A program made the translations under genes and the position numbers. Below the pieces are notes generated by a model, which was not told the origin of the DNA, made no database searches, and saw only the letters and a program-made list of their open reading frames with translations. From Escherichia phage D108, in sequence record NC_013594.1: a stretch of DNA of 37,235 bases, one strand, 5' to 3'. Positions 1,279-11,044 of the stretch are shown here, one piece after another; position 1 is the first letter of the stretch; each line of letters starts with the position of its first letter.

Positions 1279-3267
1279 ATGAAAGAATGGTATACAGCAA
1301 AAGAGTTGCTCGGTTTGGCAGGTTTACCAAAGCAAGCCACTAACATTACACGTAAGGCACAAAGAGAAGGCTGGGAGTTCAGGCAGGTTGCAGGGACTAA
1401 AGGTGTATCATTTGAATTCAATATCAAATCATTCCCTGTCGCATTACGTGCTGAAATTCTGTTGCAACAAGGGAGAATTGAAACAAGTCAGGGGTATTTT
1501 GAAATCGCCCGCCCCACGCTGGAAGCCCATGATTATGATCGTGAGGCACTGTGGAGCAAATGGGATAACGCCAGCGATTCCCAGCGCAGACTTGCTGAAA
1601 AATGGTTGCCTGCGGTTCAGGCTGCAGACGAAATGCTGAACCAGGGGATTTCAACGAAAACGGCTTTTGCGACCGTTGCAGGGCATTACCAGGTCAGCGC
1701 ATCCACTTTGCGGGACAAGTATTACCAGGTACAGAAGTTTGCGAAGCCTGACTGGGCGGCTGCACTTGTTGATGGACGTGGAGCATCCCGTCGCAATGTT
1801 CACAAAAGTGAATTTGACGAGGATGCCTGGCAGTTTCTGATTGCAGATTATCTGCGACCGGAAAAACCCGCCTTCCGCAAATGTTATGAGCGTCTGGAAC
1901 TGGCAGCCCGCGAGCATGGCTGGAGTATTCCCTCCCGTGCCACGGCCTTTCGCCGGATTCAGCAACTGGACGAGGCAATGGTTGTTGCCTGTCGTGAAGG
2001 TGAACATGCACTGATGCATCTGATACCGGCACAGCAGCGAACTGTGGAACACCTGGACGCCATGCAGTGGATCAACGGCGACGGTTATCTGCATAACGTC
2101 TTTGTACGCTGGTTTAACGGTGATGTGATCCGTCCGAAAACATGGTTCTGGCAGGATGTGAAAACCCGAAAAATTCTGGGCTGGCGCTGCGATGTGAGCG
2201 AGAACATTGATTCAATTCGCCTCTCGTTCATGGATGTTGTGACTCGCTACGGTATCCCGGAGGATTTTCACATCACCATTGATAACACCCGTGGTGCTGC
2301 GAATAAATGGCTGACGGGAGGCGCGCCCAATCGCTACCGCTTTAAGGTAAAAGAGGACGATCCAAAAGGACTGTTTTTACTGATGGGGGCGAAAATGCAC
2401 TGGACAAGCGTTGTTGCCGGTAAAGGCTGGGGCCAGGCAAAACCTGTTGAACGTGCTTTCGGTGTTGGTGGGCTTGAGGAATACGTTGATAAGCATCCGG
2501 CACTGGCTGGCGCATATACGGGGCCTAATCCGCAGGCAAAACCTGATAACTATGGCGACCGCGCTGTTGATGCAGAGCTGTTTCTGAAAACCCTTGCCGA
2601 AGGTGTGGCGATGTTCAATGCCAGAACAGGCCGTGAAACAGAAATGTGCGGAGGCAAACTTTCGTTTGATGACGTTTTTGAGCGTGAATACGCCAGAACG
2701 ATTGTGCGTAAGCCTACCGAAGAGCAAAAACGGATGCTGTTACTGCCTGCCGAGGCAGTGAACGTTTCACGTAAAGGCGAGTTCGCGCTTAAAGTTGGTG
2801 GCTCCCTTAAAGGTGCGAAAAACGTTTATTACAACATGGCGTTAATGAATGCCGGAGTAAAAAAAGTTGTGGTCAGATTTGATCCACAGCAGTTACACAG
2901 CACGGTTTATTGCTACACCCTTGACGGTCGGTTTATCTGTGAAGCGGAATGTCTGGCACCTGTTGCGTTTAATGATGCTGCGGCAGGCCGTGAATATCGC
3001 CGTCGCCAGAAACAACTGAAATCTGCGACGAAAGCAGCAATTAAGGCACAGAAACAAATGGATGCACTGGAAGTGGCAGAGCTGCTGCCGCAGATAGCCG
3101 AACCTGAAGCACCAGAATCACGAATTGTCGGCATTTTCCGGCCTTCCGGTAATACGGAACGAGTGAAGAATCAGGAGCGTGATGATGAATACGAAACTGA
3201 GCGTGATGAATATCTGAATCATTCGCTGGATATTCTGGAACAGAACAGACGTAAAAAAGCCATTTAA
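1279..3267 (+). CDS. A: DDE transposase MuA (662 aa)
   Basis: Mu-repressor-like N-terminal DNA-binding domain; DDE catalytic context present ([30 protein letters not shown]); size and position match MuA. Confidence 0.95.
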
Positions 3268-8281: not shown

Positions 8282-8833
8282 ATGAGTCGCACATCCCTGA
8301 TTAAATTAATCCATGTCGCCCGTCGGGAGCTACAACTCGACGACGACACTTACCGCGCTTTTCTGATGCAGAAAACGGGCAAAATCAGTTGCCGCGAGCT
8401 TACGGTTACGCAACTGGAACAGGTGCTCGATGCCATGAAAGAACGCGGCTTTAAGAAGCTGAATAAATACCCCCGTCGCCGCTTTAAGGAACATGTCACA
8501 CCCCGCGAGAAGGTGTATAAAATCTGGCAGCAGATGGCAGAAGACGGTTTTATTACCGATGGCGGTGATGTGGCGCTGGATAAATATGTTCAGCGCCTGA
8601 CGGCGAAACGTAATGGCGGACAGGGTGTTTCCACGCTGGCTTGGTGCCACGGAGAATCGTTGCAAGTTGTGCTTGAAACCCTGAAACAGTGGCACATCCG
8701 CTGTATTCGTGAAGCCTTTTCCCGTCACGGGCTTCCGTTGCCGGTCAGTCCGTCCGGGCGTGAACTGCGCGGCTATGATGCCATGACGGCGGCTTATGCC
8801 CATGCCAGAAAGACACGGAGGATGGCACAATGA
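8282..8833 (+). CDS. gemA: GemA-like early protein (183 aa)
   Basis: ATG at 8282 with SD GGAGG upstream; lies immediately before mor as in Mu (the track start at 8039 is an unlikely extension). Confidence 0.7.
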   Translation: MSRTSLIKLIHVARRELQLDDDTYRAFLMQKTGKISCRELTVTQLEQVLDAMKERGFKKLNKYPRRRFKEHVTPREKVYKIWQQMAEDGFITDGGDVALDKYVQRLTAKRNGGQGVSTLAWCHGESLQVVLETLKQWHIRCIREAFSRHGLPLPVSPSGRELRGYDAMTAAYAHARKTRRMAQ

Positions 8834-9219
8834 CGGAAGATTTATTTGGTGATTTGCAGGATGACACCATCCTGGCACATCTTGACAATCCCGCAGAGGA
8901 TGCGTCACGCTTTCCGGCACTGCTGGCGGAGCTGAACGATTTACTGCGCGGGGAGTTGTCCCGGCTGGGTGTTGATCCTGCCCATTCACTGGAGATTGTT
9001 GTGGCTATCTGTAAGCATCTGGGCGGCGGTCAGGTCTACATTCCACGCGGTCAGGTTCTGGACTCGCTGATTCGGGATTTGCGTATCTGGAATGATTTTA
9101 ACGGTCGCAACGTCAGCGAACTGACCACCCGTTATGGTGTCACTTTCAATACGGTTTACAAGGCCATTCGCCGGATGCGACGGCTGAAATACCGCCAGTA
9201 CCAGCCCTCACTTCTGTAA
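8830..9219 (+). CDS. mor: Mor, middle-operon transcription activator (129 aa)
   Basis: Mor/C family; C-terminal HTH region (IPRGQVLDSLIRDLRIWNDFNGRNVSEL...) is paralogous to the C protein at 10012; last gene before the early terminator. Confidence 0.85.
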   Translation: MTEDLFGDLQDDTILAHLDNPAEDASRFPALLAELNDLLRGELSRLGVDPAHSLEIVVAICKHLGGGQVYIPRGQVLDSLIRDLRIWNDFNGRNVSELTTRYGVTFNTVYKAIRRMRRLKYRQYQPSLL

Positions 9220-9225
9220 ACAGTA

Positions 9226-9250
9226 AAGCCGGTTAATCCGGCTTTTTTTA
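9226..9250 (+). terminator. Rho-independent terminator of the early transcript
   Basis: aagccgg-ttaat-ccggctt hairpin followed by T7 run, 7 bp after the mor stop; about 9.2 kb from the left end, as for the Mu early terminator. The middle promoter Pm is expected just downstream. Confidence 0.8.
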
Positions 9251-9296
9251 CGTCCTCAATATCCTGTGATGAATAACCGTACCGGGGGAAATCATC

Positions 9297-9515
9297 ATGG
9301 GTAAAGGCTGGAATGCATCCTTTCATCTTGGCAGACGTGAGCGGCTGCGTCAGGAGGTTTTGCACCGTGTCGCCGGTGGGCCACGGCCTGCGCCCCGCGA
9401 CTATACCGGTCATGATGGCACCCACGGCAGTTATTACATGAAAGGCTGGCAGTCAGTTGATATGCCGGAAATTCTTCATCATTGCCTGCTTTACAGGGAG
9501 AAACATTATGTCTGA
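9297..9515 (+). CDS. Hypothetical middle-operon protein (72 aa)
   Basis: ORF with GGGGGAAA SD-like sequence; first ORF after the early terminator. Confidence 0.45.
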   Translation: MGKGWNASFHLGRRERLRQEVLHRVAGGPRPAPRDYTGHDGTHGSYYMKGWQSVDMPEILHHCLLYREKHYV

Positions 9516-9870
9516 GCGTTCTGCTCGTCAGTGGCCTGATTTTTTATCGGTGGTGTTACTGGCGCTGTTATTGTGGATAAGTCTGTTTTGTGGCTGGCGC
9601 GCGCTGATGTTTTGCTGTGCCTCGGTTTTCAGTGTTGCTTTATGTGTTGCCGGTGATTGTCTGGATGCGCTGATAATGAGCTGCCGGGTGCCTGAACATT
9701 TTGCCCGGTTCGTCTGGCCGCTGACCTGGCTGGGGAGTCTGTCCGGGCTGGGATTAGCCGTGATGGCAACGTCTCAACTGAAAACGGGTCCTGAGCATGT
9801 CATCTGGGCGCTGGCCGGATTGCTGACGTTCTGGCTCTCCTTTCGTTTTCGCGCTCGTCTGTTCGGGTAA
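9508..9870 (+). CDS. Hypothetical multi-pass membrane protein (about 120 aa)
   Basis: Start likely at MSERSARQ (9508). Several hydrophobic helices (VVLLALLLWISLFCGW; ASVFSVALCVAG; LGLAVMATS; WALAGLLTFWLSF). Confidence 0.55.
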   Translation: MSERSARQWPDFLSVVLLALLLWISLFCGWRALMFCCASVFSVALCVAGDCLDALIMSCRVPEHFARFVWPLTWLGSLSGLGLAVMATSQLKTGPEHVIWALAGLLTFWLSFRFRARLFG

Positions 9871-9879
9871 AGGGGCACC

Positions 9880-9999
9880 ATGTACAGAAAATTCAGTGAT
9901 GAATGTTTCGGGCCGTCCACGCTGATTAGTGCGATAAAAGTGATTGCCCTTGTGGTTCTGATAACCATCAGTGCCGTGGTGTATCTTTCTGTCTGTTAA
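9880..9999 (+). CDS. Small single-pass membrane ORF (39 aa), not in the ORF track
   Basis: ATG at 9880 with SD AAGGGG 5 nt upstream; MYRKFSDECFGPSTLISAIKVIALVVLITISAVVYLSVC has one clear TM helix; fills the gap between 9870 and C. Confidence 0.4.
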   Translation: MYRKFSDECFGPSTLISAIKVIALVVLITISAVVYLSVC

Positions 10000-10011
10000 C
10001 CGGGGGAAAAT

Positions 10012-10434
10012 ATGCAGCATGATTTATTTGAACACGATCCGGCAATTCGCCAGTTAATCGGACATATTGATAACATCCCTGCCCCGGAACTGGAATCACG
10101 CTGGCCCCGTTCGGTGGTTGATCTGATTGATGTTCTGGAAAACGAACTGAAACGCCAGAACGTCAGCAATCCCCGTGAGCTTGCCCGTAAACAGGCCGTT
10201 GCCCTGTCCTGTTTTCTGGGTGGGCGGCAGTTTTATATCCCCTGTGGCGATACTATCCTGACCGCGTTACGCGACGATTTGCTTTACTGCCAGTTCAATG
10301 GTCGTAACATGGAAGAACTGCGTCGCCAGTACCGCCTGTCCCAGCCGCAGATCTACCAGATTATTGCCCGCCAGAGAAAGCTGCATACACGGCGTCATCA
10401 GCCTGATCTGTTCTCACCTGAAAGCCCAAAATAA
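10012..10434 (+). CDS. C: C, late-gene transcription activator (140 aa)
   Basis: Mor/C family; size and position (before lys) match Mu C. Confidence 0.85.
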   Translation: MQHDLFEHDPAIRQLIGHIDNIPAPELESRWPRSVVDLIDVLENELKRQNVSNPRELARKQAVALSCFLGGRQFYIPCGDTILTALRDDLLYCQFNGRNMEELRRQYRLSQPQIYQIIARQRKLHTRRHQPDLFSPESPK

Positions 10435-10455
10435 CCGGCATCCTGCCGGTTATTT
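10433..10455 (+). terminator. Hairpin terminator after C (end of middle transcript)
   Basis: aaccggca-tcc-tgccggtt stem-loop followed by T-rich tract. Confidence 0.6.
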
Positions 10456-10525
10456 CCTGTCACCATAATCCCGCACCTGTCACCTGATTTTTTAGACTGC
10501 CATCAGAGATTTTTTTCAGGGAAGC

Positions 10526-11044
10526 ATGATGGCGGGGATACCAAAAAAACTGAAAGCCGCACTGCTGGCGGCAACGATTGCCGGTGGTGGTGTGGGTGGT
10601 TATCAGGAAATGACCCGTCAGTCTCTGATCCATCTGGAAAATATCGCTTATATGCCTTACCGCGATATTGCCGGTGTGCTTACGGTCTGTGTGGGACATA
10701 CCGGACCGGATATCGAAATGCGCCGTTACAGCCATGCGGAGTGTATGGCTCTCCTCGACAGTGATTTAAAACCGGTTTATGCGGCAATCGATCGTCTTGT
10801 CAGGGTGCCGCTGACGCCATATCAGAAAACGGCGCTGGCAACGTTTATTTTCAACACCGGTGTTACCGCATTCAGTAAATCAACGCTGCTGAAAAAACTC
10901 AATGCCGGTGATTACGCCGGAGCGCGTGACCAGATGGCCCGCTGGGTGTTTGCCGCAGGCCATAAATGGAAAGGACTGATGAACCGTCGCGAAGTGGAAA
11001 TGGCAATCTGGAATATCAGGGGGGCGGATGACCTTCGCCAGTAA
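10526..11044 (+). CDS. lys: SAR endolysin, phage lysozyme (T4/P21-type), 172 aa
   Basis: N-terminal weakly hydrophobic Gly/Ala-rich signal-anchor-release segment (LKAALLAATIAGGGVGG), then lysozyme catalytic region (ENIAYMPYRDIAGVLTVCVGHTG). Confidence 0.9.
   Translation: MMAGIPKKLKAALLAATIAGGGVGGYQEMTRQSLIHLENIAYMPYRDIAGVLTVCVGHTGPDIEMRRYSHAECMALLDSDLKPVYAAIDRLVRVPLTPYQKTALATFIFNTGVTAFSKSTLLKKLNAGDYAGARDQMARWVFAAGHKWKGLMNRREVEMAIWNIRGADDLRQ

Follow-up and report, generated by a model that had tools for sequence, protein, structure and literature searches.

The locus considered here lies in the middle operon of Escherichia phage D108, between gene 19 and the late-gene activator C, in a stretch of 37,235 nucleotides (record NC_013594.1) that was analysed as a whole and is referred to below as the window. 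The region is 98.7% identical to phage Mu and collinear with the Mu records AF083977 and NC_000929. The middle transcript, also known as the C operon, starts at the Mor-dependent promoter Pm and carries genes 18, 19, 20 and C, and a scan with the σ70 consensus finds nothing at Pm, as expected for an activator-dependent promoter. All of the features are on the + strand, as follows:

8830-9219, + strand: mor, placed by the gene order of the region
9212-9282, + strand: Pm, the Mor-dependent middle promoter and start of the transcript with genes 18, 19, 20 and C; position transferred from AF083977 (Mu 9163-9233, offset +49)
9297-9515, + strand: gene 18 (E18), 72 aa, PHROG 2121 (no function label), from the ORF list and annotation
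9508-9870, + strand: gene 19 (E19), 120 aa, four predicted transmembrane (TM) segments, PHROG 4975, from annotation; stop codon at 9868-9870
9870-9875, + strand: Shine-Dalgarno-like (SD) AAGGGG of gene 20; anti-SD duplex -7.0 kcal/mol
9880-9999 including the stop, + strand: gene 20 (Mup20/gp20; D108 protein 20), ORF for a 39-aa small membrane protein, from sequence, annotated CDS and PHROG match
9940-9996, + strand: most hydrophobic 19-residue window of gp20, residues 21-39 (VIALVVLITISAVVYLSVC), after K20, from the hydropathy scan, AlphaFold2 (AF2) and the AF083977 note
9975-10021, + strand: weak candidate RNA hairpin, a possible element of translational coupling, joining the SD and AUG of C to the final 8 codons of gene 20; minimum free energy -15.2 kcal/mol
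10002-10007, + strand: SD of C, GGGGGA, in the 12-nt spacer after the gene 20 stop; duplex -8.6 kcal/mol, annotated as RBS in AF083977
10012-10434, + strand: C, late transcription activator of the Mor/C family, 140 aa (Pfam PF08765, E = 9e-34; annotation)
10432-10455, + strand: terminator of the middle transcript, transferred from AF083977 (TransTermHP prediction, Mu 10383-10406)

C is the sole essential gene of this operon and is 99-100% identical among all Mu-type relatives; 3' of the terminator lie Plys, a C-dependent late promoter, and then the endolysin gene. The gene 18 stop and the gene 19 start overlap by 8 nt (ATGTCTGA), a typical coupled junction. In the mechanical ORF list gene 19 begins at a TTG and has 137 aa (9457-9870), the annotated start being the ATG at 9508. 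Outside the operon, positions 1-1467 of the window (repressor, ner and the start of A) are non-Mu-like and match Escherichia virus Mu_3F6 at 99.9%, which, with the exact match of gp20 to D108, marks the window as a Mu genome of D108 type.

The first-pass annotation, made from the letters alone, had pointed to an unlisted 39-codon ORF directly upstream of C that fills the gap behind the preceding gene, has a well-spaced SD and encodes a single strongly hydrophobic helix. The ORF is indeed present, with its ATG at 9880, its TAA at 9997-9999 and the start of C at 10012 (product MYRKFSDECFGPSTLISAIKVIALVVLITISAVVYLSVC, from the sequence and the ORF list), and it takes 120 of the 141 nt between gene 19 and C, with 9 nt before and 12 nt after it. 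It is unlisted in the ORF track, which has a 60-aa cutoff, but not in public records, where the CDS is annotated as gene 20 in Mu, D108 and SfMu alike. AF083977 and NC_000929 contain it as Mu_20/Mup20 (AAF01097.1 / NP_050624.1; UniProt VG20_BPMU), and the 2022 re-annotation of AF083977 labels the product [quoted passage not shown] on the basis of Phobius and TMHMM; the older left-end record M64097 (1991) lacks it. Judged by sequence, the ORF is thus the long-annotated gene 20 (Mup20/gp20) of phage Mu/D108, already known and no new discovery.

The predicted product is identical over 39/39 residues to the D108 "Uncharacterized protein 20" (C9DGM7, ACV50278.1) and 100% identical to its Mu_3F6 equivalent, and this exact sequence occurs on at least 1000 contigs. 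From Mu it is separated by a single, non-synonymous base change (S17N; 38/39 residues or 97.4% identical), and both genes sit between gene 19 and C, 12 nt ahead of the latter, so that nothing of substance differs. PHROG 19823, a family with no assigned function, matches over the full length (residues 1-39 of 39, E = 8e-30). A Pfam search gave a sub-threshold TM match only (DUF3566), and sequence searches of NCBIfam, PADLOC and the PDB gave no matches. The G+C content of gene 20 is 43%, compared with 52% for the whole window and 52-55% for the neighbouring genes, which is consistent with a T-rich hydrophobic coding region or with a gene recently acquired or newly arisen.

With regard to the SD, AAGGGG is real, its pairing with the 3' end of 16S rRNA being among the best 6% of 1495 + strand ATG/GTG contexts, but "well-spaced" was a generous description of the short 3-4 nt that separate it from the ATG; AF083977 places the RBS elsewhere, at GGGT (window 9865-9868). 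The hydrophobic helix, on the other hand, was read correctly. Residues 21-39 have a mean Kyte-Doolittle value of 2.77, which none of the other ORFs among the 250 of 30-60 aa in six frames of the whole window exceeds, and AlphaFold2 models one long helix at 12-38, preceded by a short one at residues 3-9 and a Gly-Pro break, with a mean pLDDT of 83 overall and of about 95 over residues 21-39. Residues 21-39 would form a C-terminal membrane anchor essentially without a periplasmic tail. When the 141-nt gap was shuffled 20,000 times with dinucleotides preserved, a complete ORF of at least 39 codons appeared in 4.8% of the shuffles, and one of equal hydrophobicity as well in none; because no shuffle matches both length and hydrophobicity, the ORF is taken to be more than a product of chance.

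Conservation of the frame and the gene 19 cassette

Conservation of the frame in Mu relatives had been proposed as a check, and it came out in favour of the gene: in 37/37 Mu-type loci examined the frame is open, with an ATG or GTG start, and always lies directly upstream of C, in three different upstream contexts. In 18 of the 37 loci gene 20 follows gene 19 (...TAAAGGGGCACC-ATG), in 14 it directly follows gene 18 with a GTG start and an AAGGA SD (...AAGGAAAAATATT-GTG), and in the remaining five it directly follows gene 18 with an ATG (...AGAGAAAAATACC-ATG). The gene 19 indel spans exactly start codon to start codon (window 9508-9879) and leaves gene 20 intact; in relatives without gene 19, the sequence just 5' of the gene 19 ATG continues directly with gene 20 from its codon 2. 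Gene 20 occurs without gene 19 in 19/37 loci, and the same is true of 20 of 40 listed E. coli genomes (out of 41); among the relatives concerned are SfMu, several phages of Yersinia and many prophages of E. coli. Gene 19 appears, from this comparison, to behave as a precise cassette, dispensable and missing in roughly half of the Mu-type relatives. Since gene 20 is retained in about half of the loci without gene 19 beside it, gp20 does not seem to depend on gp19, which argues against an obligate gp19-gp20 pair.

The homologues of this second kind, comprising the annotated ACQ86_gp20 of SfMu and unannotated counterparts in Yersinia Mu-like phages and E. coli Mu-type prophages, are 39-aa ORFs, 92-97% identical and directly upstream of C; they differ from the D108 gene in the absence of gene 19, in the GTG start (ATG in the second of these contexts) and in overlapping the end of gene 18. 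In prophages lacking gene 19 the ORF is left uncalled by PGAP. In the Mu-type Yersinia phage vB_YpM_5 (L037 437-1220) the gene 18 homologue is preceded by a different gene, a 186-aa ORF, and homology to the window starts just 3 nt before the gene 20 ATG, another mosaic joint at the gene 20 start.

A phmmer search of gp20 against 1.84 billion representative proteins returned three clusters, all the same gene or mis-called variants of it, with nothing similar outside the Mu/D108/SfMu clade, and the 12 tblastn matches among 50,697 phage records are all Mu-type (Escherichia, Shigella, Yersinia). The gene is present in 41/5426 complete E. coli genomes. A metagenome scan with a degenerate, back-translated pattern of the N-terminus yielded nine contigs, all with identical N-terminal DNA, and no deeper gp20 lineage. 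Relatives were also gathered by synteny, starting from the C protein: no gp20 counterpart was seen in Mu-like elements with a C homologue of 67-38% identity; Pasteurella Pmp9, the Mu-like insert of Stx phages and IMG/VR loci at 54-67% identity in C have no small TM ORF ahead of the C/Mor homologue; and the genome-contig scan with C gave a single locus, in Erwinia tracheiphila, without a gp20 homologue. A 38-aa hydrophobic ORF in two loci (L034 and L035) was considered as a counterpart and judged spurious, as it overlaps the end of gemA and terminator-like sequence. On the strength of these searches, gene 20 is a young orphan restricted to the Mu/D108/SfMu clade.

In some distant Mu-like elements the slot before C is taken by another cargo gene, one targeted to the envelope. 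In prophages with C 66-67% identical (Erwinia type), a protein of about 145 aa with an N-terminal signal-peptide-like segment replaces genes 18-20 (L032 1402-1920, L033 1402-1920, L031 1486-1920, L009 1903-2420), the copy in E. tracheiphila (L009) being split into two ORFs, probably by a frameshift. The same E. tracheiphila locus has PKS tripeptide repeats (PKSPKSPKS...) in frame before a Mu-type endolysin (L009 2948-3592, repeat at about 3020-3090); they correspond to a tandem 9-nt DNA repeat just upstream of, or within, the SAR-endolysin N-terminus.

Sequence variation and coding constraint

Variation within gene 20 is unevenly spread. Codons 2-11 show zero changes in the 37 loci, although rare variants in the protein sequence cluster do have N-terminal substitutions, and 10/11 of the amino-acid replacements in codons 13-39 leave the segment uncharged, the exception being S31R; about 25% of the possible non-synonymous changes in these codons would give a charge, a proline or a stop. 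Apart from S31R, the replacement types found in the 37 loci (I/M/L, S/N/T, V/A/M, T/A, T/S and S/F) are conservative. The S31R copy, on a metagenomic Mu-type contig (L044 3971-4090), places the arginine in mid-helix and has TTAACAAGGGG in place of the usual TTAACCGGGGG as spacer before C; it may be a decaying copy, or the helix may tolerate a charge.

A diverged haplotype, found in six complete E. coli genomes and one IMG/VR contig, has a patch over codons 12-29. The patch (L006 2500-2640, L024 1871-2011, corresponding to window 9913-9981) covers 52 nt and is about 21% divergent (11/52) between flanks and a C gene that are nearly identical, and it looks like recombination from an unsampled, more distant allele. 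Compared with the window, this haplotype has 6 synonymous and 5 non-synonymous differences, giving a dN/dS of 0.27 (binomial p = 0.03), while the other two sense frames contain stops and have ratios of 2.5-2.8. It also carries a 2-nt deletion that turns the last five residues, YLSVC*, into SFCLLTGGKYAA*, making a 46-codon ORF whose stop overlaps the start of C. When all haplotypes are taken together, there are about 10-11 non-synonymous to 7 synonymous changes and dN/dS is about 0.5, which is not significant; C over the same loci has about 7:16. Coding constraint on gene 20 therefore appears weak but detectable (dN/dS about 0.27-0.5) in a clade that is too shallow for a decisive test.

The wobble-matched antisense frame of gene 20 has an equally low dN/dS. 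Two antisense ORFs of M64097, E-64 and F-60, were rejected as genes, because they extend into gene 19 sequence that is missing in half of the relatives and also run opposite to the rightward (+ strand) transcription units annotated across the region; the low dN/dS of one of them reflects wobble positions that it has in common with gene 20.

The junction with C

The distance from the gene 20 stop to the ATG of C is 12 nt in 31/37 loci, 11 nt in two and -11 nt in two, and two Mu records are duplicates. The gene 20 stop is therefore as close to the next start (12 nt) as is typical of a coupling leader, and the scan for σ70-like promoters found none inside the region (9100-10600). Since termination falls on the SD of C, translation of gene 20 probably aids the loading of ribosomes on C, and translational coupling of gene 20 to C is plausible. 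The candidate hairpin at this junction folds with a z-score of -1.6; 16/200 shuffles fold equally well, no covariation was found, and the structure is weakened in the frameshift haplotype.

Lysis and the likely role of gp20

The obvious functional guess for a small phage membrane protein, which the first-pass annotation had also made, is an antiholin or a holin partner; inhibition of a host membrane protein, which it named as well, would be a candidate alternative. According to Chamblee et al. 2022 (PMC9239132), proteins with a transmembrane domain are encoded in Mu by genes 19, 20, 23 and 25 only, and a holin-antiholin pair of gp19 and gp20 had been proposed by Samanta et al. 2021 (as reported in PMC9239132). 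With untagged constructs under arabinose induction (pBAD), cells expressing 19, 20 or 19+20 stay viable even after depolarisation with DNP, under the same conditions in which lambda S105 and phage 21 S68 kill (PMC9239132). DNP delays Mu lysis and does not trigger it, and these authors conclude that Mu has no holin, gene 20 being a dispensable middle gene without toxicity (PMC9239132). Lambda S105/S107 and phage 21 S68/S71 are, like gp20, small phage inner-membrane proteins encoded near the endolysin gene; gene 20 differs from such pairs in being middle and not late, non-lethal, without triggering by depolarisation and not needed for lysis (PMC9239132). A role as holin or antiholin is accordingly rejected, both on these published results and on the presence of gene 20 without gene 19. 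In terms of features common to holins, gp20 has the TM domain (hydropathy 2.77, AF2 helix 12-38), but its gene precedes both C and Plys within the Pm-to-terminator unit and is not on the late transcript with the endolysin, and it does not co-occur obligately with gp19 as a partner, gene 19 being absent beside it in 19/37 loci. Mu lysis relies instead on a SAR endolysin and the releasin gp25 in place of a holin system.

Two other classes of small membrane proteins are worth comparing. Bacterial single-pass regulators such as AcrZ, MgtS, MgrB and KdpF have fewer than 50 aa, one TM helix, no toxicity and no enzymatic domain, and bind a larger membrane protein; the likeness of gp20 to them is one of class only, with no sequence similarity to any family, and because the whole clade has gene 20, co-occurrence is uninformative about a partner. 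Type I toxins such as Hok, TisB and Ldr are small and hydrophobic and resemble gp20 in both respects, from which they are set apart by the absence of toxicity when gene 20 is induced (PMC9239132). As regards an antisense promoter, no promoter-like site was found on either strand over 9100-10600, nor any Rfam family at the locus; a weak Rfam sroD match at 9192-9250 (E = 0.46) corresponds to a terminator-like hairpin of the Pm region. In the literature, no ribosome-profiling or proteomic evidence for gp20 was found and no gene 20 phenotype is reported.

Taken together, we consider it likely that gp20 is a genuine, non-essential, tail-anchored inner-membrane peptide of the middle phase that acts on a membrane partner independently of gp19, and whose translation probably also feeds ribosomes to C. 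The Mor-activated transcript from Pm would carry genes 18, 19, 20 and C, and gene 20 would use its own ATG to give a peptide of 39 residues. Of these, residues 1-20 (MYRKFSDECFGP..., with R3, K4 and K20) would remain in the cytoplasm, whereas the C-terminal 19-27 or so hydrophobic residues would make up a single helix that holds the peptide in the inner membrane, N-in C-out. As an accessory protein, gp20 would form no holes and stand outside the lysis machinery; by analogy with bacterial small membrane proteins, it most likely binds another inner-membrane protein. Ribosomes ending gene 20 would stop 12 nt before the C start, on the SD of C, and probably help to load C. A more specific version can be offered tentatively, and is rather doubtful: that gp20 is a newly arisen, clade-specific, tail-anchored peptide that modulates a particular host inner-membrane protein in the middle phase, for example by blocking superinfection or a membrane-bound defence or stress sensor, again independently of gp19 and with the invariant cytoplasmic motif YRKFSDECFGP as its interaction surface.

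It is nevertheless important to weigh readings in which the peptide matters less or not at all. Gene 20 might act mainly in cis, as a translated leader that brings ribosomes to the RBS of the toxic, dose-sensitive C and unfolds it, the peptide being a by-product. Such a leader would account for the invariable linkage to C with a stop 12 nt (11 or -11 in variants) from its ATG, for the retention of gene 20 when gene 19 is lost, and for the relaxed amino-acid constraint and the tolerated frameshift at the C-terminus; base pairing of the 3' codons with the C SD and AUG is possible (-15.2 kcal/mol), and the lethality of C overexpression, as described in 10.1101/2025.01.04.631326, makes it plausible that C dosage matters. 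Yet the hairpin is not clearly better than that of shuffled sequences, lacks covariation and is weakened in the frameshift haplotype, C owns a strong SD (-8.6 kcal/mol), and nothing in a leader role alone would call for the genome's most hydrophobic helix or for its staying uncharged, so that an exclusively cis function seems unlikely to us. Slightly less probable still is that gene 20 is not a gene, but a chance open frame in a T-rich spacer carried along by its physical tie to C. An ORF of this length does turn up in 4.8% of the gap shuffles, open frames persist by default in so young a clade, the all-haplotype dN/dS is not significantly below 1 with the antisense wobble-matched frame equally low, frameshift and S31R variants exist, and PGAP omits the gene in several genomes. 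Against this stand the 0/20,000 shuffles that join this length with this hydrophobicity, the presence in three independent contexts of a start codon accompanied by an SD or by overlap with the preceding stop, and the gene 19 indel that respects the gene 20 start codon exactly; moreover, the other genes of the operon overlap or have gaps of at most 12 nt, to which an untranslated gap of 141 nt would be an exception.

The proposal that gp20 times lysis as antiholin or holin partner of gp19 (Samanta et al. 2021) is by far the least probable of these readings. It draws on the single TM domain, the neighbouring four-TM gp19 and a SAR endolysin gene about 500 nt downstream; against it, gene 20 is transcribed from the middle and not the late promoter, induction of 19, 20 or 19+20 is non-lethal even after DNP, unlike that of lambda S105 or phage 21 S68 (PMC9239132), and gene 20 persists without gene 19 in about half of the Mu-type phages and prophages.

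As a discovery, gene 20 carries little weight, since it has been an annotated Mu gene from the complete genome annotation onwards and the obvious functional guess had already been discarded. What the comparison brings out is a small membrane peptide kept by every Mu-type phage next to the late-gene activator, with a cytoplasmic N-terminus that is invariant in the 37 loci while the helix drifts conservatively. The retention of gp20 without gp19 means that the two proteins are to be studied separately, and the locking of the gene 20 stop to the C start makes a cis role in dosing the toxic C testable.
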